From NCBI GenBank assembly GCA_963790475.1, contig CAWBOS010000006.1:192001-256000 (forward strand): DNA of 64,000 nt. The letters run 5' to 3'. The translations under genes were made by a program, and so were the position numbers. Below, in pieces: positions 31,962 to 64,000 of this stretch; position 1 is the stretch's first letter; the number at the start of each line of letters is the position of its first letter. The notes under the pieces were generated by a model that was not told the origin of the DNA, made no database searches, and saw nothing but the letters and a program-made list of their open reading frames with translations. This DNA comes from an uncultured delta proteobacterium (GTDB lineage: Bacteria; Desulfobacterota; RBG-13-43-22).

Positions 31962-32125
31962 GATTGGGATAATGGAAGGGTGGAAGATTGGAAGGACAAA
32001 GACAGAGAACGGAGGGAGAAAGATTGGGGGCGGGTTAGGGGTTTATTGGGTCTGATGGGTCGTTTGGTTTTTTTTACTGAACAGACTAAATAGACCAAAA
32101 AGATTATAGGACCAGATAGACCCAA
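31962..32125. repeat. Stacked 8-mer, 7-mer and 9-mer repeats with a local inverted 9-mer pair
   Basis: gattggga/taatggaa/gattggaa; gggtttattgggtctgatgggtcgtttgg vs agactaaatagacc...gatagacccaat. Confidence 0.75.
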
Positions 32126-32467
32126 TTAAAGGGATAGACTTAACTTAAGGGCTCGTTCGACTTCTTTCATTTTATTTTCATCGACCAACCCCAACCTTTT
32201 TTCCAGTCGATCTTTAGAAACCGTTAGGATCTGGATGGTTTTTATAATAGAAGGTTTTATCAATCCACCTTGAGGTGGATCTAGTAATACATTCATAGGA
32301 TATTTCTTTACTGTTGTTGAAACGGCGGCGACAATCGTAGTCGAAGCATGTTCATTGCCAATATTGTTTTGAATAACCAGCGCAGGTCTTTTCCCGGCCT
32401 GCTCGCTGCCGCGGGCCGGGTTCCAATTGACAACCCATATTTCACCACGCTTGGGGAAGGTGGTCAT
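32126..32467 (-). CDS. mazF: MazF/PemK toxin
   Basis: KRGEIW..WNPARGSEQAGKRPALVIQNN...QILTVSKDRL. Confidence 0.92.
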   Translation of the reverse strand: MTTFPKRGEIWVVNWNPARGSEQAGKRPALVIQNNIGNEHASTTIVAAVSTTVKKYPMNVLLDPPQGGLIKPSIIKTIQILTVSKDRLEKRLGLVDENKMKEVERALKLSLSL

Positions 32468-32697
32468 TGGTGAATTTCCTTTTGGGCTTCCAAGGTCAAT
32501 TCAGAAAATTTCCGGTCTTCATCCGCCATCTCCCGGTATCCCTCGGCCATTAAGGCTTCAGTCTTTTTTTCCAACCATAAGGAAAATGACTCTTGCGCCA
32601 AACGGCTTCGGGCCAAATTAAAACGCTTGGCGGCCTGGTCAACAGCCTCACATAATCCTTCATCGATAGTAATGGTAATTTTTTTCTTGGTTTGCAT
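32464..32697 (-). CDS. RHH/CopG antitoxin (NdoAI-like)
   Basis: KITITIDE...RSRL...MAEGYREMAD; overlaps toxin start. Confidence 0.85.
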   Translation of the reverse strand: MQTKKKITITIDEGLCEAVDQAAKRFNLARSRLAQESFSLWLEKKTEALMAEGYREMADEDRKFSELTLEAQKEIHQ

Positions 32698-32728
32698 TAT
32701 GCCCCCAATTAGTCTTACTTTTTAGCAG

Positions 32729-32757
32729 ATATTATGTCATATTTTGAGTCATGTCAA
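32729..32757 (-). promoter_or_regulatory. Sigma70 promoter of the TA module
   Basis: TTGACA-17-TAATAT on the minus strand. Confidence 0.65.
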
Positions 32758-32791
32758 GAGAAAAATTTGGACACAAATGAATTGTGAGAGC

Positions 32792-32939
32792 TTGGTTTGG
32801 TCTGTCGGTTTGTTGAGTTTAATATGTCTATTTTGTCTATTTGGTTGAGGACTGAGGAAAAAGGATAAAGGAACGAGGAGCGAGGAGAAAAGATTGAGAT
32901 GCGAGGAAAAAGGAACGAGGGGAAAGGAGAAAGGAGAAA
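32792..32939 (+). repeat. 9-mer (G/T-rich) then heptamer (nnAGGAn) tandem arrays
   Basis: tgaggac tgaggaa aaaggat aaaggaa cgaggag cgaggag...; 32853-32872 is identical to 34796-34815. Confidence 0.85.
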
Positions 32940-32951
32940 TGACCAGGGGGG

Positions 32952-33242
32952 CTATGGTTTTAGCTTGGACAGCAGAAGCCGGAATTGATCATAGAGGTCT
33001 CTCCGGTGGCCGACATAAAAAACCTGGACAACCCGATTATCATTGTCAACGGTGTATATGATCCTGAATCTCTTGGGTTTAAAGGACTTAAATTCGGCGA
33101 GTTCCTCCTGCAAATCGTCGCCGACATAGGGTTCCTCACGAAGTTGGTCTAAGGCGTCTCGTATGATCTTCTTATGATCAGGATGCAGGCGGGAGATGCA
33201 TTGCGCTGCTTCAGGAGTGAAACTAACCCGGTACTTCTTCAT
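32952..33242 (-). CDS. relE: RelE/ParE-family toxin
   Basis: YRVSFTPEA...PYVGDDL...FRIIYTVD..VGHRRDLY. Confidence 0.88.
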   Translation of the reverse strand: MKKYRVSFTPEAAQCISRLHPDHKKIIRDALDQLREEPYVGDDLQEELAEFKSFKPKRFRIIYTVDNDNRVVQVFYVGHRRDLYDQFRLLLSKLKP

Positions 33243-33508
33243 TTCCCAAAAACCTTATCGTACTCGACCCATTTTCCCAGATTGGCCTCCTGGATAGATT
33301 TTCGAATGATTTTCATGGCCGACTCATCGGAAAGGATGTCGATGGTCTCGAGGAGACCTATAAATTTTCTCATACTAATCAAAACAGCCTCTGGAGCGCC
33401 GTTTTTAGTAATGGCGAAGGCATCGTCGGAATCCTCAAGTTTTCGGATTAAATTCAGAAGATTGCTTTTAGCTTTGGTGATTGGGATATAATCCTGTATG
33501 ATCTGCAT
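33239..33508 (-). CDS. Phd/YefM antitoxin
   Basis: IPITKAKSNL...ITKNGAPEAVLIS...ETIDILSD. Confidence 0.9.
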   Translation of the reverse strand: MQIIQDYIPITKAKSNLLNLIRKLEDSDDAFAITKNGAPEAVLISMRKFIGLLETIDILSDESAMKIIRKSIQEANLGKWVEYDKVFGK

Positions 33509-33524
33509 ATTTATTCTCCAATAG

Positions 33525-33563
33525 TTTTAATGGTCATTATACTGACTATTAAAATGCTGTCAA
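33525..33563 (-). promoter_or_regulatory. Sigma70 promoter with palindromic operator
   Basis: TTGACA-16-TATAAT; ttttaatggtca-ttatac-tgactattaaaa inverted repeat. Confidence 0.75.
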
Positions 33564-33621
33564 CCTATTTTGTGGGACGCAAAAATAGTTGATTTGTCGG
33601 AGGTAAATTTGGTAGTTTCTT

Positions 33622-33915
33622 GCCGCAGACCGGCACAGACAGGACCGGACAAAACCGTGTCTCTCACAGAGCGCACAGAGGCACAGAGAAAACTAATTTA
33701 TGGATTGCCGTTGAGGGGAAGGCAATCCAAAACCAGCGTCGCCTTTCCGCGAAATAATCTCTCTCTGAGAACTCTGAGGGCTTGAGTGACCGGAGGGAAC
33801 GGGCGAGAGGAAAATCTTTATCTCTCACAGAGCTCACAGAGACACAGAGGCAAGAAAGATTTTCATTGCGTTTGAGAAGGCCGCAATTAAGACCTGTCTG
33901 TCGCCTGAAGGCGAA
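33622..33915 (+). repeat. Modular hairpin element: one full copy (33660-33810) plus the 5' arm of the next (33821-33850)
   Basis: 5' arm ctctcacagagcgcacagaggcacagaga; 3' arm tctctgagaactctgagggct..gaccggagggaacgggcgagagg. Confidence 0.85.
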
Positions 33916-34154
33916 GATGCTTCTCTGGAGTGTATATATTAATTGAGGGATTAAGATTTAATAAGTTCCGGAATCAAACAAATCAGGTATTCTCCCGATG
34001 CTGCTTGGGGCAAGGCATAAGTTGTCTTCTTGGCATTTTATGCCGATGGCTATAAGAAGGTGAGGATGGTACGATTAGCAAGGTTTGTTATAACCGGCGT
34101 CCTTCGCTCACCCCAATATCCCCGGATGATTAAAAAATTTTTTTCGAGTTTACG

Positions 34155-34811
34155 ATGATGAAAAATCGATCCACTCAAAATTGGTACAGGCAGATCAAGG
34201 TGTTATTACCTACAATACTGATCGCCTATTCAATAACATTGGCGGCTATTGTCGGAATCTCCATTTATGCAATTTCCACAGGGAGGCGAATCTGGTATTT
34301 CACGGTTGATCCGTTTCTTATTGGCAACCTGCCATTTTATGCCGGCTTTCTTTCTAATTTGGGACTGCTTTTGTGGAGTGCCAGCGCAACGGTTTGTTTT
34401 TTTAGCGCAATGATCCTGCGTGATGAAGAATTAATAAACCGATATAGGTATTTTTTTGTTATGTCTGGTCTCTTTACTTCCTTGATTATGTTTGACGGTC
34501 TCTTTCAGATGCATCGCATTTTCTATCCGAATCACCTTCATCTCTCAACTTTTATGATCTATTGCGTTTATAGTATTCTTGGACTCTGGTATCTCTTTAT
34601 TTTTAGAAAACAAATTATGGAGACTGAATATTTAATGCTTGCCTTGGCTTTAAGCTTCCTTGGGTTGGCCGTAATTATTGATACCGTGTCTATGGTACCG
34701 AGAGGTCGTACGGCGCTTTCGGATTTATTTAAATTTTTTGGAATTGTGAGCTGGTTCATCTATTTTATCCGCACTTGCCGGAAGGTTCTGAGGAATGAGG
34801 AAAAAGGATAA
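34155..34811 (+). CDS. Hypothetical 7-TM membrane protein
   Basis: 218 aa hydrophobic ORF; DP..PFYAGFLSNLG. Confidence 0.7.
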   Translation: MMKNRSTQNWYRQIKVLLPTILIAYSITLAAIVGISIYAISTGRRIWYFTVDPFLIGNLPFYAGFLSNLGLLLWSASATVCFFSAMILRDEELINRYRYFFVMSGLFTSLIMFDGLFQMHRIFYPNHLHLSTFMIYCVYSILGLWYLFIFRKQIMETEYLMLALALSFLGLAVIIDTVSMVPRGRTALSDLFKFFGIVSWFIYFIRTCRKVLRNEEKG

Positions 34812-34843
34812 AGGATCGTGGAGATTTACCTAAAACGAAAGTT

Positions 34844-35137
34844 CCTCTCTCAGAACTGTGAGGGCAAGATTGACCGGGGAGTGAGCGGCGAGAGGAAAAG
34901 TCTTTATCTCTCACAGAGCTCACAGGGGGCACGGAGATGATATTTATTGATTGCCGTTGAGGGAGGGGGCGGCAATCAATATCCATCCGTCGCCTGGCGA
35001 CGACCCGTGGTTACACGCCCAAAGGGCCAGATGGTAGGAGGAAGACAAGTCGTCTTCCCTCCTGTCAGGTATTTGTCTGTGGCAAAAGAAGCTCTGAGAA
35101 CTGAGGGCTCAATTGACCGAAGGGAACGGGCGAGAGA
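34844..35137 (+). repeat. Modular hairpin element: a 3' arm (34844-34895) and a full copy (34907-35137)
   Basis: Same arms as 33660-33810; includes the aggaggaagac-aagtc-gtcttcc module. Confidence 0.85.
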
Positions 35138-35256
35138 AAACAGGAGACGTCGGAAAATTGTGTCTAAGCACAAAGAATGGCGCCAGTTTTTCGCCTTGGC
35201 TTAAGACCAAGAATTATATCCCATTGAAATACTGATTTTTTTTATAGGCCTCCTCA

Positions 35257-35272
35257 TGGCATAGGTTTTGCT
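35257..35272 (+). promoter_or_regulatory. Sigma54 -24/-12 promoter
   Basis: TGGCATAGGTTTTGCT, GG-N10-GC. Confidence 0.7.
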
Positions 35273-35329
35273 AAATCAGGAAGAAAGCAATTATCTCACT
35301 TTATCAATACTGGAGAAAGGGAGGTTTTT

Positions 35330-36178
35330 ATGATGGTGAAGAAGACTAGGGCTTCGAAGAACAGCTTTTCAGGAAAAAGGGGTTATGGGTGGGTGCCGGA
35401 TATTCCGGATCAGAGGGATTATCTTTTAAGCGCAGTGCTTAAGGTGCCGGCCAGGCTGCCTGGCAAGGTAGATTTGCGGCCGCTCTGTTCCAAGATTGAA
35501 GATCAGGGCCAACTGGGGAGCTGCACGGCCAATGCCCTGGCCGGGGCCATCGAGTTCCTGGAACGAAAGGACAAGGTTCCTTTTCAGGATTTCAGCAGGC
35601 TCTTTATTTACTATAACGAACGGGCCTTGGAACACACCATAAACTCCGATTCGGGGGCCATGATCCGGGATGGGATCAAGACTATGGCCAAGCAAGGGGT
35701 CTGCTCCGAGAAGAGCTGGCCCTATGAGGTATCCAAGTTTAAATCTAAACCGGGACCAGCCTGCTATAAAGAAGCCTTGGAACATCAGATCACCTCCTAT
35801 CGTCGTATTCTCACCCTTGATCAGATGCGGACCTGTCTGGCCGAAGGGTTCCCTTTTATCTTTGGCTTTACCGTGTACGAGAGCTTTGAAACCCAGGAAG
35901 TCGCCCGGACCGGTGTTGTGAATATGCCCGACCATGGCGAGCAGGTGCTCGGAGGGCATGCCGTTCTCGCCGTGGGGTACGATCATTCCAAAGAGAGATT
36001 TATTGTCCGAAATTCCTGGGGAAGCGGTTGGGGCCTGAAGGGCTATTTCACCATGCCCTATAAATACCTCAGCAACCGTAACCTTTCCGACGACTTTTGG
36101 ACCATCCGCAGGGGAGAATTGATGGTTCCCAGAAAAAAGGAAAGGATTGAGGTACGAGGAAAAAGAGTTGAGGGGTGA
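35330..36178 (+). CDS. Papain-like cysteine peptidase (C1 family)
   Basis: DQGQLGSCTANA, GGHAV, RNSWG catalytic motifs. Confidence 0.92.
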   Translation: MMVKKTRASKNSFSGKRGYGWVPDIPDQRDYLLSAVLKVPARLPGKVDLRPLCSKIEDQGQLGSCTANALAGAIEFLERKDKVPFQDFSRLFIYYNERALEHTINSDSGAMIRDGIKTMAKQGVCSEKSWPYEVSKFKSKPGPACYKEALEHQITSYRRILTLDQMRTCLAEGFPFIFGFTVYESFETQEVARTGVVNMPDHGEQVLGGHAVLAVGYDHSKERFIVRNSWGSGWGLKGYFTMPYKYLSNRNLSDDFWTIRRGELMVPRKKERIEVRGKRVEG

Positions 36179-36622
36179 TCTCTCACAGAGCAGAGGGAGG
36201 CACAGAGGGGAAAAGCTCATAGCTCAAAGCTGATAGCTGATAGCGAGAAAGAACTATCAAGAGATAGCGTCATTATTTTTTCATTGCGGTCGAGAAGGAC
36301 CGCAGTTGTCTATGACAAAAGAAAAGAAGGATTTATAGCCACGGACGCACACGGACAAAGTCTGGACGAAAGATAATTTGCCTGGCCCCTACAAGGACGT
36401 GGCCAAGCAAACCCAGCCGTCGCCTGGCGGCGAACCTGGAGTTAAGTACCTGATCCATTAGGCCTTAGGTAAGCCGAAGGCTGGATGGGTTATGAAAATC
36501 GGCCTGACACCGAATTTTATAAAAAGTGGTTCCTTCTCTCTGGGAAATCTGAGGGCTCGAGTGACGGGAGGGAATGGGCGAGCGGAAAAGATCCGATCTC
36601 TCACAGGGCACGCAGAGGCACA
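36179..36622 (+). repeat. Extended modular hairpin element (36179-36586) with internal heptamer tract, plus the next 5' arm (36597-36622)
   Basis: Arms as above; agctcat/agctcaa/agctgat 36214-36244; internal modules shared with 61951-62165. Confidence 0.82.
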
Positions 36623-36709
36623 ACTAGGCATTGCGCAATGTTTGAGTTATTGACATTCTCTGAAGATGCGCTTAATATAGGCTCATAATTAAACGCTAGA
36701 GGTGCAACA

Positions 36710-36940
36710 ATGAGAATAACCGCACATATTCCGGATAATATTGCAAAAGATGTTAAGAGGTTTGCTGACAATGAAAAGATGTCGGTATCGGCGGTAATAG
36801 CCGAAGCGCTTCAATATTATGTTTACGAAAAAAAAAAGATGGAAACCGGGAAAAAAGTTTTGGCCATGATCGGCAAGGTGCACGTTTCTGAAGATGCACA
36901 TAAAGAACTTAATAAAATGAGAGCAGAGACTGAAAGATGA
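36710..36940 (+). CDS. RHH-type antitoxin
   Basis: MRITAHIPD...SVSAVIAEAL; ATGA overlap with PIN gene; TTGACA-17-TAATAT at 36650-36678. Confidence 0.8.
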   Translation: MRITAHIPDNIAKDVKRFADNEKMSVSAVIAEALQYYVYEKKKMETGKKVLAMIGKVHVSEDAHKELNKMRAETER

Positions 36941-37329
36941 TAGGTTTGGATTCGGGTTTTTTTGTTGAGCTTCTTAAGGGCAATCAACAAACCGAAAGAA
37001 TCTGGAATGACATTTTGGATGGTCAAGGTTCTGTAGTATCGTGCATTTCTTTATTTGAACTTAAGAGGCTCGGCCTGAAAGGTTTGATTGATATCAGCAC
37101 GATCGACACTATTAATGAAGCGATTATGAATATATGCAATATTGCCTGGTTAGATAATGTTACTGTTGTCAATACGGCTGCTAATTTTTCCCACGGATTG
37201 GGAATCCACATGGCTGATGCCTTGATCCTTTCAGGATTTATTAAATATGGAGTTACGAAAATATACACAACGGATCAACACATTTCTTTGTATAAGAAAA
37301 AAGGCGTGAGGGTTATTATGCTAATTTAA
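36937..37329 (+). CDS. vapC: PIN-domain toxin (VapC)
   Basis: GLDS, SLFEL, ADALI, YTTD. Confidence 0.88.
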   Translation: MIGLDSGFFVELLKGNQQTERIWNDILDGQGSVVSCISLFELKRLGLKGLIDISTIDTINEAIMNICNIAWLDNVTVVNTAANFSHGLGIHMADALILSGFIKYGVTKIYTTDQHISLYKKKGVRVIMLI

Positions 37330-37367
37330 TCCATGACTTTTTTTACTTTGTTCTTATAGGGCGCCTT

Positions 37368-37552
37368 TCAATTGACCGGATGGAACGGGCGTGAGAAAAA
37401 AGGTGAAAGGAACTAGGAGCGGGTTATGGGTGGGGATTTGTTGAGTTTGTTGAGTCAATTGGGTTCATTGAGTTATTGGGTTTAATTGGTAGGCTTGGGT
37501 ATCCTCTTTTAATACAAAAATACCGTTTGTCGTTTATCGTTCGGTGTTCGGC
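37368..37552 (+). repeat. Element 3' arm followed by 7-mer and 9-mer arrays
   Basis: tcaattgaccggatggaacgggcgtgag; ttgttgagtttgttgagtcaattgggttcattgagttattggg. Confidence 0.8.
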
Positions 37553-38140: not shown

Positions 38141-38216
38141 TTCTTACCTCTTCTATATGTTCCTTACTTTTTAACCTTACTTTATCCAAATAAAATATTT
38201 TGTCAAGAGAATCCAT

Positions 38217-39053: not shown

Positions 39054-39485
39054 TCCACGGACCCACACAGACAGAAACTGGGACAATAGCTTATCTCTCG
39101 CGGAGCACGCGGAGGCACAGAGATTTTTTTCATTGCGGTTGAGGGACCGCAATGAAAAACACCCCGTAGTCTGATTTCCCTTTCTCAGAAAATCAGACTA
39201 TAAGTAACACACTCTGCAAACTCTGAAGGCTTGAGCGAAGCGGGCGGGAGAAAAGGGGTTTTGAAGTCAAAATGAAAAATGGAAAGTGCAGTTTGGTCTG
39301 TTTGGTCTATTGAGTCTATTGAGTTTGTTGAGTTCATTGCGTTGAGGAGAGAGGAAGAAGGAGAAAGGACAGGAAACACGGGGAAGAATGGATTGATGGA
39401 ATAATGGAAAAGGCAACAAGGATCAACCCAAACCACTCAAGTAACTCAATAACCCAACTAACTCAAGCAACCCAATAAATTCAAC
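39054..39485 (+). repeat. Modular hairpin element (39094-39252) followed by stacked 7/9/8-mer arrays with an inverted 9-mer pair
   Basis: 39291-39345 (ttgagtctattgagtttgttgagttcattg) is complementary in type to 39424-39485 (actcaataacccaactaactcaa). Confidence 0.82.
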
Positions 39486-41422: not shown

Positions 41423-41518
41423 AGTCAAAATGAAAAATGCAAAAGATAAAGTGCAAAATGAAAAAAGGGTAAAGGGGAGGGTGGTGGGTTCATAGTCAGA
41501 GAGCTGGGTTCAGAGACC
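41423..41518 (+). repeat. Heptamer arrays (agtcaaa/atgaaaa/atgcaaa type, then G-rich)
   Basis: agtcaaaatgaaaaatg identical at 39265-39281; related tract at 48341. Confidence 0.78.
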
Positions 41519-42315: not shown

Positions 42316-42572
42316 GTGAAAGGGAAAAGGGGAAAGGGGAGAGGGGTTGGTTACGGGTTACAAGTTGCGGATTCATTGAAAAGTCTTGGGTTGAGGACTG
42401 AGGAGAAAGGATTTTTTACGCCAAATCCAACAAATTACAGTCAGTCAATAAAGGAAACAGACCAAACGACCAGACAGATAAAACAGACCAAACGACCAGA
42501 CAGATAAAACAGACCAGAAAGACCAAAAAAACGAACAGACCAAAAAAAAACCAGATAGACTCAATTAACTCT
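42316..42572 (+). repeat. G-rich heptamer tracts followed by C/A-rich 9-mer tract with a perfect 26-bp tandem duplication
   Basis: aaacagaccaaacgaccagacagata at 42455-42480 and 42481-42506. Confidence 0.85.
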
Positions 42573-42801: not shown

Positions 42802-43686
42802 ATGATGATGGACAAACAAACCAAACTGAGAACCGCATTATTTTTTCTGATAACAGTCATTATCGGCCTGTTGATTTTATTTCCTCTAAAGGCACTTTTG
42901 TATTCGGAATCCAAAGGGATGTATTATGAATATTATTCCCATATTCTTTTGATACCCCTGGTGAGCGCCTACTTGCTTTATAACCGTCGCCAAGAAATAT
43001 GGGAATTCAAGAAAACCGCCATCCCGGTGTCGGGAGTTTTGGTTGGCGTTATTGGTATTATAGGCTACGGGACAGCCTTGGTACAAGATCAAAACATGGG
43101 ATTCATTAATGCCGTCGCCGGGCAAATCACTGGCTTACTTATTGCCTGGTTGGGAGCCTTCCTGCTTTTCTGGGGGACGGCCGCTTTTCGGCAGGCCCTT
43201 TTCCCTTTGCTGTTCCTTTTCTTTATGGTGCCGGTCCCCATGGATCTGATGGACGCCTTTATTTATGCCCTCCAGTGGGGGTCTTCCGAGGCTACAGGGC
43301 TGATCTTCAGTGTCCTCGGCACCCCTTATTACCGGGAAGGCTTCATCTTTCAACTGCAGACGGTCACCATCGAAGTAGCCAGGCAGTGCAGCGGCATCCG
43401 CTCCACCATGGCCATGGTCATCACCGGTGTCCTGGCCGCCCACCTTTTTTTGCGCGACAACGGGAAGAAGCTGATCCTGATGTTGACCATATTACCAATA
43501 ACTGTTTTTAAAAACGGCCTAAGGATCGTCATCCTGACGCTTTTGGCCATTCATGTTGACATGCGTTTCCTGACCGACAGCTTTTTGCACCATTCCGGGG
43601 GGTTTTTGTTTTATATACCGGGACTTTTAATTTTTGGGGGAATCCTCTTGCTTTTAAGAAGAGTTGAAAAAAGGACTGAGGACTGA
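42802..43686 (+). CDS. xrt: Exosortase (EpsH family)
   Basis: YSH, FMVPVP, CSGIRS (Cys), NGLRI (Arg), LHH (His). Confidence 0.92.
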   Translation: MMMDKQTKLRTALFFLITVIIGLLILFPLKALLYSESKGMYYEYYSHILLIPLVSAYLLYNRRQEIWEFKKTAIPVSGVLVGVIGIIGYGTALVQDQNMGFINAVAGQITGLLIAWLGAFLLFWGTAAFRQALFPLLFLFFMVPVPMDLMDAFIYALQWGSSEATGLIFSVLGTPYYREGFIFQLQTVTIEVARQCSGIRSTMAMVITGVLAAHLFLRDNGKKLILMLTILPITVFKNGLRIVILTLLAIHVDMRFLTDSFLHHSGGFLFYIPGLLIFGGILLLLRRVEKRTED

Positions 43687-43706
43687 GTGCTTAGGATTGA
43701 GGGGTG
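43672..43706 (+). repeat. Heptamer repeat aggactg/aggattg spanning the exosortase stop
   Basis: 43672-43683 is the exact reverse complement of 44271-44282. Confidence 0.85.
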
Positions 43707-43769
43707 AATTAGATAGAAGACCGGGAATGATTTTAAGGGACATTTTCAAGAATTTGAAAGGAAAGAATT

Positions 43770-44162
43770 GTGGAAAAGAAAAAAATTGAAAAATTTGAAG
43801 ATTTGATTGCCTGGCAGAAAGCCCGCGAATTGACAAAAATTATTTACCAAATTACGAACTACGGGAAGTTTTCGACGGATTTTGGGGTAAGGGATCAAAT
43901 CCGAAGATCAGCCGTTTCCAATATTGCTGAAGGATTCGAGCGGGGAGGTCGGGCGGAATTCCACCAATATTTAGTTATTGCAAAAGGCTCTTGCGCGGAA
44001 TTAAGATCCCAATTATATGTTGCCTTGGATGCCGGGTATCTTGACATAGTCACCTATCAAAAAGTAAATGCCTTGGCTGAAGAAACAAGCCGTTTGATAG
44101 GTGGACTTAGATCAGCAGTCTATCGCCAGAAAACTGTTGATCGTGTAAAGAGAACAAATTAA
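43770..44162 (+). CDS. Four-helix-bundle protein (23S rRNA IVP / Avd-like)
   Basis: [13 protein letters not shown]...[17 protein letters not shown]...[12 protein letters not shown]. Confidence 0.9.
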
Positions 44163-44259
44163 GATAAGAGGGAAAACATAACAAAAAGAGTTTATTTTGG
44201 TATTCGGAATTGAAGAAAACGAACCTTATTCCCGGAGCATAAGGTCTGATGAATAAGTT

Positions 44260-44282
44260 CTCAGTCCATCGTCCTCAGTCCT
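44260..44282 (+). repeat. Heptamer repeat ctcagtc just before the prsK start
   Basis: ctcagtc catcgtc ctcagtc ct. Confidence 0.85.
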
Positions 44283-44288
44283 AAAAAA

Positions 44289-46415
44289 ATGCTTTCCTAT
44301 ACTTTACTTATATCTTTAGTCGCTGCTTCCCTGGCGGGTCTGATTGCCGCCCTGGCCCTGTATCGCGATCCCCACAACTTGGTACACAAGATATTGGCCG
44401 CTGGGATGGTGGTTCTGGCTGTTGACGCAATCTTGACCTTCCTGAGCAGGGGGGCTTCCGAGCCTATGGGCATGATCGCCTGGCGGCAATGGCTTTACCT
44501 GGTTTCTGCTTTTCTTCCGGCCTTGTGGCTGGCCTTCGGTCTCAGCTATGCCCGTGCCGATCACCGGGAAAATCTGTTGCGCTGGAAATGGACCCTGGGC
44601 CTCGTCTTGGTCATCCCTCTGGTGCTGGCTGGCATTTATCGGGATGCTCTTTTTGCCGGGCCGCCGGTTTGGATTCCCGACACCGGGTGGGTCATTCCCT
44701 TGGGATGGGCAGGTTACGCCTTTAATCTGTTCCTACTCATTACCTTTATTATGATTCTTCTCGATTTGGAAAAGACCCTACGGGGTTCGCGCGGGGTCAT
44801 GCGCTGGCAGATCAAGTTTACTGTCCTGGGTCTGATCGCCCTTTTCGGAGCACGGATATTCACTTCCAGCCAGAATATTCTTTATCGCTCCGATAACCTG
44901 GACTTGGCGCTGGTCAACAACGGGGCACTTATTATCGCCGGGGTGTTGATTCTTCGGTCGTTGTTTCGGACCAAATTCTTCAGTGCTGAGCTCTATGTTT
45001 CCCAAAAGATTCTCTACAACTCGCTGACCCTGCTGATTATCGGCATTTACTTCATCGCCGTCAGTCTTTTGGCCAAGCTTTCGACCTACTGGTTCCTCGG
45101 CCGGACCTTACCCCTCCAGGCCTTTTTCCTACTGGTGGCCCTGGTAGGTTTAACGATCCTCATTTTTTCCGACCGGCTTCGCCGCAAAACCAAGCTTTTT
45201 ATCAGCCGTAATTTCCAACGCCCCCTTTACGACTATCGTAAGGAATGGATCCGTTTCACCCAGGAGACCACGGCGGTTCGAAATGTCCAGGATCTTTGTC
45301 AGGCTGTAACCCGAATGGTTTCTGATATCCTCCATTTCCTTTCCGTAACCATCTGGTTGGTGGACGAAGCAGGTGGAAGGCTGGTTCTGGGCGGTTCCAC
45401 AGCGATTACCCAACAGGAGGCCGATTCTCTGAGACCCTTCGAAAAGGCACAGAAAGAATTAATCGAGGCTATGGCTATGGAAGTGGATCCGGTGGATTTT
45501 GACAGCGCTTCGACTTCCTGGTCCATCAGCATCCCGGAATTAGACCTGGAATTTTTGAAGGCGGCTCGAATCCGCTATGTGGTGACTCTTCGAGCCGGAG
45601 AAACCTTGATCGGGTTGTTGACCTTGGATCAAAGAGTAGCCGAAGATCTATTGACCCTGGAGGACTTCGACCTCATTAAGACCATCGCCGATCAGACTTC
45701 CGCCGGATTGAACCAGTTAAGATTGGCCGAAAAGGTCCAGAAGACCCGGGAGATGGAGGCCTTTCAAACCATGTCCACCTTTTTCATCCATGACCTGAAA
45801 AATGTGGCCTCCCGTCTTTCACTGACCATGCAGAATCTGCCGGTACATTTTAACAATCCCGAGTTCCGGCAAGATGCCCTGCAAAGCATCGGCCAGAGTC
45901 TGGAAAAGATCAACGGATTATGCAGCCGCCTATCCTCCTTGCGGGAAAAACTGGAGGTGCATCTGAAAGAAGCTGATCTGAACGAAATGGTAAAAAAGAA
46001 TCTATCTGAATTTGAAGGAGCGTTGCAAGCCCGCCTGATCCAGGACTTTACCCCACTTCCCAGAATTCCATTGGACCTGGAGCAGATTTCCAAGGTCCTG
46101 ACCAACCTGGTCTTAAATGCCAATGAAGCCCTAACTCCCGGGAATGCCGGCGGCGAAATCCGGGTGGCCACTCGCCTTTTGAATAATTGGGTCGAGTTTT
46201 CGGTTAGTGACAATGGTCTGGGCATGTCCCGGGAAATGATAGAGCGCTCCCTTTTCCTGCCTTTCCGGACCACCAAGAAGCAAGGCATGGGCATCGGCCT
46301 TTTTCAGAGTAAGATGATTGTCGAAGCCCACCACGGACGCATCGAGGTGGAAAGCGAGGAGGGAAAGGGGACGACGTTCAGGGTGTTGCTGCCGACCTAT
46401 AATAAAAGGGGGTAG
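44289..46415 (+). CDS. prsK: PEP-CTERM system histidine kinase
   Basis: Multi-TM N-terminus, RWQIK, YDYRKEW, GAF region, FFIHDLKN, NLVLNA, GMGIGL. Confidence 0.92.
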   Translation: MLSYTLLISLVAASLAGLIAALALYRDPHNLVHKILAAGMVVLAVDAILTFLSRGASEPMGMIAWRQWLYLVSAFLPALWLAFGLSYARADHRENLLRWKWTLGLVLVIPLVLAGIYRDALFAGPPVWIPDTGWVIPLGWAGYAFNLFLLITFIMILLDLEKTLRGSRGVMRWQIKFTVLGLIALFGARIFTSSQNILYRSDNLDLALVNNGALIIAGVLILRSLFRTKFFSAELYVSQKILYNSLTLLIIGIYFIAVSLLAKLSTYWFLGRTLPLQAFFLLVALVGLTILIFSDRLRRKTKLFISRNFQRPLYDYRKEWIRFTQETTAVRNVQDLCQAVTRMVSDILHFLSVTIWLVDEAGGRLVLGGSTAITQQEADSLRPFEKAQKELIEAMAMEVDPVDFDSASTSWSISIPELDLEFLKAARIRYVVTLRAGETLIGLLTLDQRVAEDLLTLEDFDLIKTIADQTSAGLNQLRLAEKVQKTREMEAFQTMSTFFIHDLKNVASRLSLTMQNLPVHFNNPEFRQDALQSIGQSLEKINGLCSRLSSLREKLEVHLKEADLNEMVKKNLSEFEGALQARLIQDFTPLPRIPLDLEQISKVLTNLVLNANEALTPGNAGGEIRVATRLLNNWVEFSVSDNGLGMSREMIERSLFLPFRTTKKQGMGIGLFQSKMIVEAHHGRIEVESEEGKGTTFRVLLPTYNKRG

Positions 46416-46478
46416 GGTATAGGGTGTAAGGGGTAGGGTGGATACTTAATATGGGTTTTAGGGGGTAGGGTGTTAGCT
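46407..46478 (+). repeat. G-rich heptamer repeat (agggtgt type) spanning the prsK stop
   Basis: agggggt agggtat agggtgt aaggggt agggtg; complementary C-rich tract at 46917-46946. Confidence 0.8.
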
Positions 46479-46510
46479 AGAGATAGGAAGCGAAAAAATG
46501 AGGGCAAAAA

Positions 46511-46868
46511 ATGGAGAGTTATAAGGAGTTGATCGCTTAATCAAAAAGGTTATCAATTATCCCTTCAGGTTTATGAGATTACAAAAAGATTTCCGAAAGA
46601 AGAGATTTATGGAATAATTTCTCAAATGAGGAGGAGCGCCGTTTCGATACCCTGTAACATCGTGGAAGGATATCGACGAGGACACAGAAAGGAACATATA
46701 CAATTCCTTTATATGTCTTATGGGTCTTGCAGTGAATTGGAGACCCTCCTTTCTTTATCTAAAAATCTTGGCTTTTTAGAACAGCACTTTTTTGATAAGA
46801 TTTATTCCTTACAAGAAGAAACTTCGAACTTATTGAAAAGTTTAATTGTATCCTTATCCCGGAAGTGA
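46511..46868 (+). pseudogene. Four-helix-bundle gene with +1 frameshift
   Basis: MESYKELIA then TAA 46538-46540; removing one A gives AYQKGYQLSLQVYEITKRFPKEEIYGIISQMRRSAVSIPCNIVEG. Confidence 0.85.
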
Positions 46869-46903
46869 TTTAGTTAGAACCCCCGGATTGAAAGGAAAAG
46901 AAT

Positions 46904-48298
46904 ATGCCGGAAGAATCACCCCCTCCCACCATCCCCCTCCCCCCTATTCAGAAGCCGCGTCTTCTTATCGTTGAAGATGATGAATCCATTCGCACCCAAA
47001 TGAAGTGGGCCCTGATGCAGGACTACGATGTCTTTCTATCCGAAGACCGGGCCAGGGCTTTAGATCTTTTGCGTTTGGAAAAGCCCGCCGTAGTAACTTT
47101 GGACCTCGGACTGCCACCAACCCCGGCGGATGTGACCGAAGGCTTTGCTGCTTTGGCTGATATCCTGGCTGAGGACAATCTGGTCAAGGTGATTATTATT
47201 ACCGGACAAGGGGAAAAGGACAACGCGCTGAAAGCCGTGGCCGAGGGGGCCTACGATTTCTTTATCAAACCCATACAGCTTGACGAACTTAAGGTGGTTA
47301 TTAGACGGGCCTTTTACGTTTCCCGTCTGGAACGCGAGAACCGGGTCTTACAGCAACAGGGGGCCGGACAGCCCTTTGCCGAAATGCTGGGCCGCAGCCC
47401 GCAGATGGAGGAGGTCATTACCACCATCCGCAAGGTGGCCACTACGGATGTTTCGGTGCTGATCAATGGTGAGAGCGGAACCGGTAAGGAATTAGTGGCC
47501 CGGGCCATTCATCAACATAGCAACAGGAGCAGCGGGCCGTTTGTAGTGATTAACTGTGGGGCAATCCCGGAGAACCTTCTGGAAAGTGAATTGTTCGGCC
47601 ACGAGAAGGGCTCCTTCACCGGTGCCCATATACAGCGCAAGGGTTTAATCGAGATGGCCCAGGGAGGAACCTTATTTCTAGATGAGATCGGGGAATTACC
47701 GCTGGGCCTGCAGGTCAAGCTCCTGCGTTTCCTTCAAGAACAGACCATTGAACGCGTCGGTGGAAGGGTCCAGATTGCCATAAATGCTCGGGTGTTGGCT
47801 GCCACCAACCTGGACCTCCAAAAGGCTGTGGCCGAGGGTCGCTTCCGTGAGGACCTTTATTTTCGGCTGGGAGTGATTTCCATTGCCCTACCGCCCTTAC
47901 GGGATCGGGAAGGTGACCTGATACTGCTGGCTAATGCTTTTCTGCATCGATATGTCCAGGAAACCAGAAAGAAAATAACCGGTTTCACTCAACAGGCCGT
48001 CAGGGCGATGGGCCAATATGCGTGGCCGGGGAACATCCGGGAGCTGGAAAACCGAATCAAGCGGGCGGTGGTCATGGCTGATGGAGCCAAGATTAATCCA
48101 CTGGACCTGGAACTGGAAACAGCCAAGGGTAAATATTACGGTCTTACTCTGAAAGATGCCCGGGAGGCTGTGGAAAAAGAACTGATTTTGAAGGCTCTGC
48201 AAAGGAATAAGGGGAAGGTGACCCAAACAGCCGATGAGCTGGGCATCAGCCGCCCTACCTTATATGAGCTTATGGAGAAGCTGGGGATTTCGAAATAA
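46904..48298 (+). CDS. prsR: PEP-CTERM-box sigma54 response regulator
   Basis: REC (TLDLGLPP), [27 protein letters not shown]; follows prsK. Confidence 0.92.
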
Positions 48299-48315: not shown

Positions 48316-48467
48316 AGGACTGGGGACTGAGTTATACTTAAGTCAAATTTCAAATTGCAAAGGGTAAAGGGCAAAATTAAAAATTTAAATGTTTTTGATG
48401 GATTCGGTGAAAAATCGGATGGAGGGGATGAAAAGATGGAATAATGGAAGGATGAAAAAATGATAGG
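48316..48467 (+). repeat. Stacked 7-mer and 8-mer repeats after prsR
   Basis: aggactg gggactg; agtcaaa tttcaaa ttgcaaa; gatggaat aatggaag gatgaaaa. Confidence 0.75.
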
Positions 48468-60725: not shown

Positions 60726-61059
60726 TGATTCTTCCTCCTTGTATTAGAGATAATTTTTCACCAAAAACCAAGGGTTACAAGTCCTTGGGATTATCTTGGG
60801 GTGGATTTAAGGTAGTAAGCCTTCAAATAATCCGGCAGCTTAGAATATTTTTCTCCAAAGGTCAAACAATTTTTTCACCGGAGGAATACTCCGGGCAGAC
60901 AGGTAAAAAAACATGAAGAACCAATAAGAGTTAGAGCTTATCATAAGTCTATTTTGCCCAACTCACAGATATAACCATTAGCCCGGAGGAGTTAAAAAGA
61001 TTGACCGAATTTGCCCCTGTGGTAGATAATGGGACTAACGAAAACCCAAAGGAGGTGCC

Positions 61060-61839
61060 TTGATGCTGGATAAAATGGAAGCCCTTCGCTATGACCGGCA
61101 AATCATGATTAACCATTTTGGGGATGAAGGACAGGAAAAATTAAGAAAAAGCCGGGTCCTGATTGCCGGGGCGGGTGGTCTGGGATCGGCGGCCGCCTAT
61201 TATTTAACCGCTGCCGGAGTGGGCGCACTTAGGATCGTGGACAAGGATAGGGTGGATCTCAGCAACCTAAACCGACAGATCCTCCACTGGGAACCGGACG
61301 TTGACCGGCTCAAGGTGGAATCGGCCAAGGAAAAACTATCCAAACTTAACTCATGGATTGACCTGGATATGCGGAAAGACGATATTAACGAGGAGACGCT
61401 TCCTCAATTGATGGAGGGGTGCGACTTGGTCCTGGACGGCCTGGATAATTTTCCGACCCGTTATTTGATCAACCAACAAATATTACGCCAGGGGATCCCT
61501 TTTATCTATGGAGGTATCCTGGGCATGATGGGCATGGCTACAATGATCCGGCCCGGACAGACTCCTTGTTTGAAATGCCTTTTCCCGCAAGCCCCTCCGC
61601 CTCAGAAGTTCCCGGTCTTAGGGACCACACCGGGAATCATCGGACTGATTGAAGCCAATGAAGCCATTAAGTATCTGGTAGGTTTTGGAAAGCTTCTTGT
61701 CGGCCGGCTGCTCGTTTATAACGGGTTGGATATGCGTTTTTCAGAAGTCCGGATTGAATCCAATCCCGAATGTCCGGTCTGTGCAAAAGTAGATAAAAAT
61801 AAGGGAGAGACGATTCCAAATGTTGACCAAGGGAGATAA
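61060..61839 (+). CDS. moeB: MoeB/ThiF adenylyltransferase
   Basis: RYDRQ, GAGGLG, SNLNRQ, DN, CLKC, CPVC. Confidence 0.85.
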   Translation: MMLDKMEALRYDRQIMINHFGDEGQEKLRKSRVLIAGAGGLGSAAAYYLTAAGVGALRIVDKDRVDLSNLNRQILHWEPDVDRLKVESAKEKLSKLNSWIDLDMRKDDINEETLPQLMEGCDLVLDGLDNFPTRYLINQQILRQGIPFIYGGILGMMGMATMIRPGQTPCLKCLFPQAPPPQKFPVLGTTPGIIGLIEANEAIKYLVGFGKLLVGRLLVYNGLDMRFSEVRIESNPECPVCAKVDKNKGETIPNVDQGR

Positions 61840-61916
61840 ATAGACTAAGGTGTATAAAAAATTAATAGGGTCTAAGAAATTCCTTTGTAACATTTTATCT
61901 ATTCTCAATACGTTTT

Positions 61917-62219
61917 GCCACCGACCCACAAAGACTGGACCAAAGGCCTATCTCTCACAGAGCGCACAGAGGCGCAGAGAATTGATATTTTCTCATTGCC
62001 GGTGAGGGGCCAGCAATGAAAAACCAGTCATGCGCTATCGCGCACCCTGGCCGAAGGCCTGAGGGGTTATGAATAATCGGCCTCTCGCCGATTTTTCATA
62101 AAATATGGTCGTTTTTCTCTGAGAACTCTGAGGGCTCAAGAGACCGTAAGGGAACGGGCGAGAGGAAAAATTAGTGCCCGGAGGGCCTGACGGTAGGAGA
62201 AGACAAGTCGTCTTTCTCC
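61917..62219 (+). repeat. Stand-alone complete copy of the modular hairpin element
   Basis: Leader gccaccgac.., 5' arm 61951-61980, internal hairpins, 3' arm 62116-62165, ggagaagac/gtctttctcc module. Confidence 0.85.
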
Positions 62220-62315
62220 AGTCTTGCAGTTTTCTGTGGTAAAAAGGAAATTGCTGTGCTTTTTTCAAAAAACTAAATTGATAAATTCGTTTAAGTATTA
62301 AGCGAGGTAGTATTC

Positions 62316-63893
62316 ATGGAGGATTGGGCCTTCAACCAGGATGATCGGCGGCGCATGACCGCCCTGGGAATTTCCGAAAGCCGGGTGCGGGCACAGATGG
62401 CCTTGATTCAAAGATCGTCTGGGTATCTTCACCTTCAACGTCCGTGCACACTGGATGACGGGATTGAGCAGGTCCAGGCCCACGAAACCGAAGCCTTGAT
62501 TTTCGTGCAGGAACAGGCAGCCAGGGAAGGCCGGTTCATTAAATTCGTCCCTGCCTCAGGCGCGGCGACCCGGATGGTTCAGGGACTTTTATCTTTATAT
62601 CTCAGCCGATCTTCTTTTGATCTGGATAAAATTTATACTGATTCAAATGAAAACGATTCCGAGGCCGGGGATTTGGTTCGGTTCTTGTCCGGTATTCGTC
62701 GTTTCGCATTTTGGGAGGAGTTGAAAAAGTCCATGGCCCGGGATGGGCTGAACATCTCCAAGGTCATCCATCAAAAACGATGGCGGGAGATTCTGGATTA
62801 TCTCCTAACTGAGCGGGGCTTGAATTACCAGGGCAGGCCTAAAGGGTTGCACCAATTCCACGCCTATCCGGGACATAACCGGACAGCCTTTGAAGAACAC
62901 CTGGTTGAGGCTGTGAACACGATTTGCGATAGAACGGGCCAATGCCATCTTCATGTGACGATTTCTCCGGAACATGAAGACACCTTCAGGAATTTCTTTG
63001 AAACCTTGCGGCCAGCTTACCAAAGCCAATACCACTGCCGTCTTAAGCTTACCTTTTCCTTCCAAAATCATTCCACCGATACTTTGGCGGTTGATCTGGA
63101 AAACCGGCCTTTTCGGGATGCTTCCGGAAACCTTCTCTTTCGTCCCGGGGGTCACGGGGCCTTGCTTCAAAATTTGAGCGATCTTCAAGGTGATTTGATT
63201 TATATAAAAAATATTGATAATGTCCAGCCGGACCGATTGAAAAAACCAACCATTGACTGGAAAAAAATCTTGGGCGGCTATCTGGTTAAGATCCAGCAAA
63301 CCATCCACGCTTTTCTTCGGAAGCTGGCTGAAGAGACGGATAGCGCGTCCTTTTTTTCGGAAGTCAGGGCCTTTTGCCGGGACCGGCTTTTGATTTATCA
63401 ACCTCCAGGTTTAACTAATTGGTCCCTTAAAGAACAAAAAAACTGGCTGATATCTTCATTAAACCGGCCCATTCGGGTCTGCGGTATGGTCAAAAATGAA
63501 GGAGAACCCGGTGGGGGACCGTTTTGGGTAGAGGATAAGGATGGAGTTGTTTCAAGGCAAATTGTGGAAGGCGCCCAGGTCGATCCTGTCTCTGCGGAAC
63601 AAAAGGCTGTTTGGACCTCTTCTACCCATTTTAATCCTGTTGACCTGGTCTGTTCGGTCCGGGATTATAAGGGCCGACCTTTTGATCTGACCCGGTATGT
63701 GGATCCGGAAGCGATTTCCATTACCCGGAAGTCCCATAATGGACGGGACGTAAAGGCCCTGGAATTACCCGGCCTATGGAACAGTAGTATGGCTAAATGG
63801 ATTTCTCTCTTCGTAGAAGTGCCTGTTCAGACCTTCAGTCCGGTTAAAACCATCAATGATTTATTGAGACCGGAACATCAAAACGAGGCCTGA
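62316..63893 (+). CDS. DUF4301 family protein (nucleotidyltransferase-like)
   Basis: KFVPASGAATRM, FRPGGHGALL, KNIDNV, GEPGGGPFW, HFNPVD, LELPGLWN. Confidence 0.88.
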   Translation: MEDWAFNQDDRRRMTALGISESRVRAQMALIQRSSGYLHLQRPCTLDDGIEQVQAHETEALIFVQEQAAREGRFIKFVPASGAATRMVQGLLSLYLSRSSFDLDKIYTDSNENDSEAGDLVRFLSGIRRFAFWEELKKSMARDGLNISKVIHQKRWREILDYLLTERGLNYQGRPKGLHQFHAYPGHNRTAFEEHLVEAVNTICDRTGQCHLHVTISPEHEDTFRNFFETLRPAYQSQYHCRLKLTFSFQNHSTDTLAVDLENRPFRDASGNLLFRPGGHGALLQNLSDLQGDLIYIKNIDNVQPDRLKKPTIDWKKILGGYLVKIQQTIHAFLRKLAEETDSASFFSEVRAFCRDRLLIYQPPGLTNWSLKEQKNWLISSLNRPIRVCGMVKNEGEPGGGPFWVEDKDGVVSRQIVEGAQVDPVSAEQKAVWTSSTHFNPVDLVCSVRDYKGRPFDLTRYVDPEAISITRKSHNGRDVKALELPGLWNSSMAKWISLFVEVPVQTFSPVKTINDLLRPEHQNEA

Positions 63894-64000
63894 AGTAAGG
63901 CGTGAGGCGTGAGGATATCCCTAACCTGAATATTGAAACATTAATCCCTTTCCAAGATTATCATTCTGGACTTATTCCGAAATCGAGTATTCTCAAGCCG

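Follow-up and report, generated by a model that had tools for sequence, protein, structure and literature searches.

In Coxiella burnetii the 23S rRNA is interrupted at helix 45 by an intervening sequence (IVS) whose 28-bp stem is cut by RNase III, and tandem GACAGAT heptamers, varying in copy number between strains, lie upstream of its S23p open reading frame (ORF; PMC4990558). Here we describe tandem arrays of 7-, 8- and 9-nt units in a 64,000-nucleotide stretch (the window; G000:C6:192001-256000) from the genome of an uncultured delta proteobacterium, referred to below as G000, in which an original prediction had pointed out strand-polarised repeat tracts anchored at stop codons. The feature is real and strong, and it can be explained in part: the tracts that follow stop codons are mostly the arms of hairpins, and some of these hairpins enclose a gene of the PF05635 (S23p) family.

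The likeness to the ORF-bearing 23S rRNA IVS of Coxiella and Leptospira lies in the inverted arms (the IVS stem is ∼ 28 bp), in the PF05635/S23p ORF of the loop and in the heptamers (PMC4990558). The modules of G000 differ from the IVS in that they lie between, or overlap, protein-coding genes, for example xrt/prsK and prsK/prsR, and not in helix 25 or 45 of 23S rRNA; in that most of them carry no ORF in the loop; and in that there are many heptamer families in one genome. Cleavage by RNase III is a feature of the Coxiella IVS; for the modules described here it is a prediction.

Tandem heptamers are also on record away from rRNA. The GGGAATC repeats of Xanthomonas and the GGGGAYT repeats of Nostoc PCC 7120 are intergenic, mostly between co-directional genes, and lie either in sense orientation (G-rich) within 50 bp past a stop codon or in antisense orientation just upstream of an ORF; 70-75 convergent inverted pairs were noted among them, and Calothrix is said in that paper to have three tandem heptanucleotides (Rehm et al. 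2015, PMC4692102). In Geobacter metallireducens, tandem heptanucleotides (for example MTYCTGA x5) occupy many intergenic sites, mostly paired, which are drawn as strand-switching loops and read as putative binding sites of a global regulator (Aklujkar et al. 2009, PMC2700814). The placement rule is thus already in print for single families (Xanthomonas, Nostoc), as are paired sites for Geobacter. The TAACTGA repeats of marine Beggiatoaceae, cyanobacteria and Bacteroidetes are intergenic and sporadic across phyla; they lie just upstream of starts, almost always as direct arrays (one inverted array of 170), with some overlapping the end of the upstream ORF and no secondary structure predicted (MacGregor 2015, PMC4679880).

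Set against these systems, G000 differs in several respects. The Xanthomonas and Nostoc repeats are presented, in the part of the paper available, as one family per genome with a quadruplex reading and no link to a cargo gene (PMC4692102), whereas G000 has dozens of families, most of them unable to form quadruplexes. The Geobacter sites share the paired tandem heptamers, but neither placement relative to stops nor cargo is described in the accessible text (PMC2700814). The arrays of G000 also fall outside the TAACTGA type, as they comprise many families, ∼ 30% of them are paired, and their anchor is the stop and not the start. The original prediction offered cyanobacterial short tandemly repeated repetitive (STRR) sequences as a partial precedent. 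STRR sequences, a subject of Mazel et al. in 1990, are said to consist of several tandem heptamer families in intergenic DNA. The likeness is a loose one, with different units, and with arm pairing and stop anchoring not known to belong to the STRR definition; the Xanthomonas/Nostoc heptamers (PMC4692102) and the ORF-bearing IVS (PMC4990558) are closer.

The G000 assembly comprises 6.34 Mb in 20 contigs (contamination figure 9.7%). Genes were called with a simple codon-usage ORF caller, which gave 5396 genes covering 79% of bases with exact stops and approximate starts; by this crude measure ∼ 21% of bases are intergenic. Tandem Repeats Finder (TRF) reported 525, 201 and 194 arrays of period 7, 8 and 9, respectively, in the concatenated intergenic DNA, compared with 28, 37 and 41 in a 3rd-order Markov simulation. 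Period 7 is the most frequent TRF period in the whole genome (715 rows), and its clusters are intergenic in 492 cases, partly so in 52 and coding in 153. With this excess over chance and this predominance of heptamers, the arrays belong to the class of long simple repeats of 5-11-nt units (Mrazek 2007, cited after PMC4679880). The window alone contributes 65 short-period rows.

The genome-wide periodic-repeat scan with distances to stops and starts, proposed as a check on the prediction, was run, and the bias whose absence would have refuted the prediction is present. Within 20 nt of stop codons, 197 arrays are G-rich on the sense strand and 35 are C-rich; within 20 nt of starts, the corresponding figures are 41 and 95 (Fisher odds ratio 13, p = 2e-26, a value that overstates the evidence because arrays of the same family are not independent). 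The positional grammar at gene 3' ends that had been noted in the window therefore holds across G000, and it is the Xanthomonas/Nostoc rule, with G-rich arrays in sense after stops and in antisense before starts. On the stop side the G:C split is 104:20 for + strand genes, 93:15 for − strand genes and 34:10 in convergent spacers, while divergent spacers, which are without any stop codon, show a weak start-side polarity of just 10 G to 14 C. Taken together, these counts indicate that the stop codon is the anchor.

The term strand-polarised is nevertheless in part misleading, as polarity is found at gene ends and not in the totals: in co-directional spacers, 368 arrays are G-rich and 349 C-rich in the sense direction. 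What separates the two kinds there is position, the median distance to the stop being 33 nt for G-rich and 97 nt for C-rich arrays. All of the larger families are present in both orientations, one lying 6-14 nt past stops and its complement 55-135 nt beyond, near the next start. The same grammar is seen on either strand, with unbiased totals, because a hairpin with the G-rich arm first reads alike on both strands. Purely purine-rich tracts are a minority, and their strand split (27 vs 18) shows no clear bias.

In the spacers occupied by the largest family, (AGTTCGG)n is followed by a short loop and (CCGAACT)n, which together make a hairpin with a tandem-heptamer stem. A reverse-complement array within 200 nt (Smith–Waterman score, SW, of at least 24) was found for 154 of the 521 intergenic period-7 arrays and 54 of the 192 period-8 arrays, and the mirror-repeat control gave 0 and 0. 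An independent ungapped scan gave 651 inverted repeats with at least 14 matched bases against 137 mirror repeats; with overlaps removed there were 558 hairpins, 440 of them intergenic, and periodic arms were present in 82 of these 440 (with period 7 in 58, period 9 in 13 and period 8 in 6). Of the 82, 69 open with a G-rich arm and 8 with a C-rich one, the other 5 being balanced. Gapped alignment gave the same order: loops are shorter than 150 nt in 127 of 177 pairs, and these 127 divide into 105 with the G-rich arm first, 13 with the C-rich arm first and 9 that are balanced. For the pair GTTCGGAG and CTCCGAAC, separated by 3-60 nt, this order was found 40 times and the opposite order 0 times. 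Periodic hairpins begin at a median of 13.5 nt past the stop, 49 lying nearer to a stop and 19 nearer to a start. Variant units are mirrored from one arm to the other, loops and flanks are unrelated from copy to copy, and the mean arm duplex energy is −35.7, compared with −19.0 in shuffles. Much of the polarity is hence a matter of hairpin geometry.

The pairing suggested in the original prediction is real, and in the spacer 39265-39500 it is nested, with the stacked families folding as a single long nested hairpin (RNAfold). The long-range pairing of mRNA that had been envisaged was not borne out, given that pairing is mostly local, as the loop lengths show. Separately, spacers within one gene cluster tend to reuse one heptamer family (C13:463700-472350; C12:25000-29500; C6:161300-164300 and 172400-183300), so that arms of adjacent hairpins are complementary over 1-3 kb as well.

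The reason for the arm order was sought in the composition of the arms. Stop-codon content was rejected, as the 5' arm (4.2 stop triplets per 100 nt) hardly differs in this from the 3' arm (3.9). Shine–Dalgarno-like tetramers (GGAG/GAGG/AGGA/AAGG) occur 6.55 times per 100 nt in 5' arms (shuffles, 3.63 ± 0.34) and 0.05 times in 3' arms, an excess that permits no conclusion because a few large families drive it. One idea is that a G-rich arm placed first may spare the nascent RNA an unpaired C-rich, G-poor stretch, and so avoid Rho loading.

G000 has 13 matches to PF05635 (23S rRNA intervening-sequence protein), including three in the window. Each of the 13 points the same way as its upstream gene, and 12 also share the direction of the downstream one; ten lie between inverted tandem arrays (SW of at least 24) with the G-rich arm upstream. 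The arm units of these cassettes vary by copy (AGTTCGG, GGTCTnTTT, GAGGAAC, GACACGG, ATTGATG, CTGGATA), and AGTTCGG, AGGACTG and GGTCTnTTT are common to cassettes and to empty hairpins, those without a gene in the loop. PF13366 (PDDEXK_3) genes are likewise enclosed by inverted arrays in 3 of 6 cases.

Two of the window PF05635 copies are such cassettes, a feature that the original prediction had overlooked. Cassette 1 (43672..44282, + strand) has a 5' arm of (AGGACTG)n at 43672-43702, a PF05635 gene at 43770-44162 and a 3' arm of AGTCCTC/CAGTCCT units at 44256-44282. The 5' arm encodes the KRTED tail and TGA stop of xrt (42802-43686), and the 3' arm lies just ahead of prsK. Cassette 2 (46406..46943, + strand) begins with a GGGTAGG/GGGTGTA arm in the last codons of prsK (44289-46415, tail KRG; stop 46413-46415), continues with a PF05635 frame at 46539-46838 and ends with a CCCCCT arm (46919-46943) inside the prsR N-terminus. 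The frame of cassette 2, taken from 46511 to 46838, has a TAA nine codons past the upstream ATG and differs by 1-nt and 11-nt indels from a related strain (∼ 90% identical), and so is probably a decaying copy. A PF05635 ORF is thus present in the loop of both window cassettes; the short-loop hairpins (the 127 pairs), which are the large majority, do not have one. Beside one PF05635 gene of the related species G013 (L137, G013:C137, 18-260), a 5' arm block AACAGTTCGGAGTTTAGAGTTCGGAGTTCGGAG is repeated three times upstream with 105-nt spacing.

The association between PF05635 and inverted arrays extends to other genomes. In a phylum sample, PF05635 was detected at E <= 0.001 in 34 of 41 genomes, G000 included. 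In 200-kb samples from the same phylum, an inverted partner was found for 0 of 38 arrays in G036 and 0 of 92 in G037, both PF05635-negative, compared with 9 of 51 in G017 and 38 of 108 in G039, both PF05635-positive; two 200-kb slices of G000 gave 11 of 44 and 7 of 55. All 13 further species of the genus contain the sequence AGTTCGGAGTTCGGAG, as do 2 of 7 additional genomes from the family and, outside the family, 2 of 20 from the phylum. Farther afield, the exact hairpin (GTTCGGA)2-loop-(TCCGAAC)2 was found at 31 loci in metagenome-assembled genomes (MAGs), with unrelated flanks and loops; by record titles these belong to Chloroflexota, Planctomycetota, Acidobacteriota, Bacteroidia, Nitrospirae, Thermodesulfobacteriota, Armatimonadota and Proteobacteria. 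An open frame of at least 60 codons ends within 45 nt of 28 of the 31, a count uncontrolled for the long random frames of GC-rich DNA, and stop proximity at these loci is to be taken as a hint. Five of the hairpin-bearing genomes, from other phyla by their titles, all have PF05635 (3, 10, 12, 2 and 3 matches). After four matches at contig ends and one below the cutoff were dropped, 25 of these 30 were examined; of the 24 that could be tested, 22 are flanked by clear inverted arms made of tandem 7-8-mers, with one ambiguous case and one lacking arms. Terminal inverted repeats that could form a long stem are therefore the usual surroundings of PF05635 in both data sets.

The protein and the heptamer also vary together. 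The comparison used 32 cassettes (23 of the 25 examined foreign copies and 9 of the 13 from G000), of which 30 passed the arm threshold to give 435 pairs. Mean PF05635 identity is 47.5% for the 9 pairs with similar arms and 28.8% for the other 426. Proteins with AGGACTG arms from Chloroflexia and Gemmatales MAGs are 65.7% identical, those with GTCAGTG arms from Gemmatales and Bacteroidia 60%, and those with GTTCGGA arms from Planctomycetia and G000 50%. The AGGACTG-armed protein of the window is 58% identical to the Chloroflexia copy and 60% to the Gemmatales copy, compared with 40% to the protein of the other window cassette. In the genus itself, AGTTCGG-type arms accompany orthologs that are 80-88% identical to the GTTCGGA-type protein, and CGTTCGG arms, with one base changed, accompany those that are 59-64% identical. 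Two readings fit these data, namely joint inheritance or transfer of gene and arms, and a functional match between protein and heptamer. AGTTCGG array counts are 132, 44, 34, 16 and 41 in genomes where the GTTCGGA-type protein has an ortholog of at least 80% identity and 27, 45, 27, 3, 3, 12 and 7 in those where it has none; a dependence of array number on such an ortholog is suggestive at best, as these genomes are kin and not independent.

Comparison with the ∼ 90% identical strain and with two related species, G003 and G013, shows that arrays change by whole units and that entire modules are swapped at the same junction. The strain contigs align over 41498-46913. Within this segment, 14 nt (two units) are missing at 43684 in the cassette 1 array, 411 unrelated bases stand in for the repeat-rich spacer 42303-42643, and the 5' arm of cassette 2 (46417-46507) cannot be aligned. 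At the prsK-prsR junction, the PF05635 cassette with GGGTAGG / CCCCCT arms is common to G000 and G003; G013 has another small gene there, between ACAGGATTAACAGGAT and its complement (ACAGGATT arms), which by eye looks PDDEXK_3/GxxExxY-like. Past the prsR stop, three species have three families, AGGACTG in G000, a ACAGGATT hairpin in G003 and a GTCTATTTA array in G013.

Module replacement also rewrites the flanking coding ends, both the final codons of the gene upstream and the initial codons of the one downstream. Immediately past a conserved LLP the C-termini of prsK diverge, and in G000 the C-rich arm supplies the coding sequence for the N-terminus of prsR. DUF4301 ends in EHQNEA in G000 in place of EHQPAKPISSSVK in G003 and G013. 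The membrane gene at 34155-34811 has an array-encoded end in G000, and its G013 ortholog ends in RRRMVRQD within a different array (ACAGGATT).

These observations lead to a reading that we hold to be somewhat better than an even prospect: the tracts are arms of genome-wide hairpin modules of IVS-like design that act on the RNA of co-transcribed operons. Each module would consist of a tandem array of 7-9-nt units starting at a gene end or a few codons inside it, a loop, and a reverse-complement array ahead of the next start. The first arm is almost always G-rich and C-poor in G000, so each gene would see G-rich sequence past its own stop and C-rich sequence before the next start, as the hairpin is equal on both strands. 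The loop is mostly 10-80 nt, and in some modules would hold a gene for a PF05635 four-helix bundle or, in some cases, a PF13366 gene. By analogy with the Coxiella IVS, the modules would be transcribed with their host operon and the arms would form an RNA stem of 20-35 bp, which may serve as an RNase III substrate or as a block to 3' exonucleases; neighbouring cistrons might in this way be uncoupled or stabilised.

Several results weigh against this reading. About 70% of intergenic arrays in G000 have no detected partner, and these solo arrays stay polar, with 74 G-rich and 16 C-rich within 20 nt past stops. A hidden downstream partner, judged by duplex energy, was found for only 17 of the 74; hairpin geometry thus fails to explain the polarity of solo arrays. 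The asymmetry between G.U and A.C mismatches, examined as a sign of selection on the sense transcript, reaches significance only in non-periodic hairpins (116 vs 82, p = 0.019) and not in periodic ones (27 vs 22). RNAfold z-scores of entire window spacers, from −2.5 to +2.7, are unimpressive; they are uninformative because shuffling blends the G-rich and C-rich halves. The third PF05635 gene of the window (9067..9432, + strand), outside the range of the noted tracts, has no clear inverted arms (score 17). Having the G-rich arm first had to be rejected as a general law, as periodic hairpins in the 200-kb samples are 2:3 in G017 and 6:6 in G039; arm order looks fixed within each family there instead. 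Finally, that the modules fold, are processed and affect expression is argued by analogy, so these steps stay conditional.

Among the alternatives, it is possible, if doubtful, that the arrays are binding sites, on DNA or RNA, for proteins of the different PF05635 clades, each clade with a heptamer of its own, empty hairpins and solo arrays then forming a dispersed regulon of cis-acting sites. The protein clade tracks the heptamer across phyla (same-arm pairs at 50-66% identity against the mean of 28.8% over 426 pairs) and within the genus, where the change from AGTTCGG-type to CGTTCGG arms follows ortholog identity; solo arrays keep their stop-anchored polarity without a partner, and one exact hairpin recurs at 31 loci in MAGs of many phyla with unrelated loops and flanks. 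Such co-variation would, however, be produced without any binding if gene and arms are inherited as a single cassette. Moreover, G007, a genome that is 100% complete, has 45 AGTTCGG x2 sites although its best relative of the GTTCGGA-type protein is just 37% identical, G003 and G011 resemble it, and the abundant AAGGTTn family supplies the arms of 0 of the 13 PF05635 copies in G000. That the arrays are instead neutral products of slippage, which accumulate past stops where they do least harm and have no function, is less probable still. It accords with the unit-sized indels and replaced spacers seen between strains, with the different families carried by related species at one junction, and with a report that heptamers predominate among long simple repeats in many bacteria (Mrazek 2007, cited after PMC4679880). 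Complementary arms whose variant units mirror each other, though, are not a product of slippage alone, which also leaves unaccounted for the arm order of 40 to 0, the single heptamer hairpin shared across many phyla and the lack of paired arrays in the samples of the two PF05635-negative genomes.

Ordinary intrinsic terminators with repetitive stems would also lie past stop codons, and when all hairpins are counted per spacer, convergent spacers do have more (85/625) than divergent ones (37/620); the sense-strand G.U excess of non-periodic hairpins points the same way. The periodic hairpins behave otherwise. A T-run of at least 4 follows the stem in 18 of 68 in the sense direction and 14 of 68 in antisense, so that most lack the U-tract, and intrinsic termination was rejected as the main explanation; periodic hairpins are not enriched in convergent spacers (9/625 vs 68/4131 in co-directional ones), and many sit inside apparent operons (xrt-prsK-prsR) with arms overlapping the coding ends of both neighbours. 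We regard this explanation as improbable. Very improbable is a spread as REP/REPIN-like elements mobilised by a Y1 (IS200-like, RAYT-type) transposase, in favour of which stands the Y1_Tnp + DnaA_C gene at 30996-31961, which directly adjoins arrays and a hairpin. Only this copy among the 5 long Y1-type genes of G000 that could be examined does so, one other having a single array ∼ 170 nt downstream; inverted flanking arrays are found at 0 of the 5, and the hairpin loops and flanks are unrelated, unlike those of REPINs. On these surroundings the link to RAYTs was rejected and is close to refuted. The least probable reading is that the arrays are G-quadruplex motifs comparable to GGGAATC in Xanthomonas and GGGGAYT in Nostoc. 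These share the placement rule (PMC4692102), and the GGGTAGG arm at 46406 might fold into a quadruplex, but it is one of few arms with a GGG run: the main families AGTTCGG, AAGGTTn, AGGACTG and GGTCTnTTT have GG runs at most, AGCTCAT is also without GGG, and the partner arm offers a duplex far more stable than that of shuffles.

A broader form of the binding hypothesis is about as tentative as the binding-site reading itself. Each PF05635 clade, whose proteins are four-helix bundles in pentameric rings, may recognise its own heptamer, with the hundreds of arrays and hairpins at gene 3' ends as targets, in a sequence-specific system, borne on cassettes and shared horizontally across many bacterial phyla, for marking or processing transcripts (or DNA). 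If such a code were true, the G-first, stop-anchored order would be the way in which the machinery engages the transcript.

Tandem heptamers are among the commonest unexplained bacterial repeats and were earlier read family by family, as quadruplexes, regulator sites or translation signals. In G000, dozens of families follow one rule, which is largely a hairpin geometry that matches rRNA intervening sequences. Three loose ends are thereby joined, in that heptamer repeats and IVS elements are linked to PF05635, a very large family whose function is unknown. In the literature outside subscription journals we found no account of heptamer arms beyond rRNA around PF05635 genes or in empty hairpins, and no paper tying non-rRNA heptamer hairpins to PF05635. 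What is added here is that empty hairpins and solo arrays far outnumber gene cassettes, share their heptamers, follow one stop-anchored rule and turn over quickly. For annotation, it matters that arrays alter the terminal codons of neighbouring genes and may sit in frame within ORFs as low-complexity linkers.

The individual tracts of the window agree for the most part with the original prediction. Its exact recurrences are correct, with the 20-nt string TGAGGAAAAAGGATAAAGGA at 32853 and 34796 and the 17-nt string AGTCAAAATGAAAAATG at 39265 and 41423. So are the starts of G-rich tracts at 31962, within 34796-34816, at 43672, at ∼ 46406, at 48316 and at 63898, and the protein tails, namely LRNEEKG (34155-34811), KKERIEVRGKRVEG (35330-36178), KRTED and KRG; prsR (46904-48298) ends in ISK. 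Pfam matches back the gene names (Y1_Tnp, Peptidase_C1, Exosortase_EpsH, HisKA_7TM/HATPase, Sigma54_activat, DUF4301). Several families are indeed stacked in one spacer, at 39265-39480 and 42318-42546, and complementary C/A-rich tracts do occur before starts or inside genes, as in the 3' arm at 46919-46943 and within an ORF at 10232-10488. One placement was wrong: by our own ORF calls, the tract 32853-32939 does not follow a + strand gene and sits between two − strand toxin–antitoxin pairs.

At the left end of this region, a G/A-rich tract of TGGAAGGG-like 8-mers (31962..32019, + strand) begins directly past the Y1_Tnp stop codon; a partner array was looked for and none was found. It is followed by a short-loop hairpin of 8-9-nt units (32039..32123), with GGGTTTATTGGGTCTGATGGGTCGTTTGG in the 5' arm and CAGACTAAATAGACCAAAAAG...GACCAGATAGACCC in the 3' arm (RNAfold). 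The Y1 product itself, of 321 aa, combines a Y1_Tnp (IS200-like) domain at its N-terminus with a weak DnaA-type helix-turn-helix (DnaA_C) at its C-terminus, and the ∼ 5 long Y1-type copies in G000 stand beside ∼ 10 ordinary IS200/IS605 TnpA copies.

The next 10 kb (32126-42228) are dense in toxin–antitoxin genes, with stacked repeat arrays between each and the next; the toxin genes are PemK/MazF (32126-32467) and PIN (36937-37329, 38593-39000, 40213-40668 and 41519-41944). A stack at 32795..32939 comprises G/T-rich 9-mers (32795-32850) and purine-rich 7-mers (32853-32939), the latter with one copy of the 20-nt string. The other copy opens the AGGATAA array at 34796..34816 (+ strand), which encodes EEKG and the TAA stop of the membrane gene. 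An AGCTCAT/AGCTGAT array (36212..36244, + strand) lies 34 nt past the stop of the Peptidase_C1 gene, and genome-wide this family, in the same orientation, is found at stop codons at a median distance of −1 nt. The G/T-rich TTGTTGAGT / ATTGGGTT array at 37437..37482 is the complement of 39425-39478, so the two are complementary 1.9 kb apart across an antitoxin-PIN pair (C6:229438-231478, score 39). The latter segment is also the 3' arm (AACCCAA / ACTCAAG) of the long hairpin at 39291..39478, whose 5' arm (39291-39343) is made of GTTTGGTCT / ATTGAGTYT units and whose loop is purine-rich (39345-39420). An AAAATGA array (41423..41465, + strand) has the 17-nt string in common with 39265-39281.

Upstream of xrt, the stacked spacer 42318..42546 contains a GAAAGGG array (42318-42346), a GGACTGA-like unit (42388-42400) and C/A-rich 9/26-mers (42455-42546). 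Past prsR, a solo AGGACTG x2 array begins 18 nt beyond the stop and is followed by other G/A-rich arrays (48316..48463, + strand); no complementary array for it lies downstream within the 64-kb window. The last tract is an AGGCGTG x2.4 array (63898..63914, + strand), 5 nt past the DUF4301 stop.

A composite element of ∼ 150-200 nt recurs in both orientations at 33640-33900, 34840-34990, 35085-35140, 36179-36300, 39085-39260 and 61930-62080. Its parts are CACAGAG-type heptamers, a CATTGC(G/C)GTTGAGGG...GCAATG stem-loop and a CTCTGAGAACTCTGAGGGC...GCGAGAGG block, and arrays related to it (GCAGAG, CGCAAAG and ACGAAG units) flank PF13366 genes elsewhere in G000.

Arrays enter coding sequence as well, as is seen in the ORF 9953-11263 (436 aa), where in-frame arrays of C/A-rich heptamers and 9-mers (AACCTCG x10, AACCCAAT...) at 10232-10488 and 10800-10922 would encode low-complexity linkers such as NLEPRTSNLEP and PNELNQPN. 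Two other in-gene repeats are of different period. A 273-nt tandem repeat (3.6 copies, 74% matches) at 27325-28293 lies in a 1287-aa ORF (25445-29308) and presumably represents repeated protein domains, and the ORF 56049-56681, which has a histidine kinase on one side and a sigma-54 response regulator on the other, contains a 21-nt in-frame tandem repeat (4.2 copies, 56514-56602).

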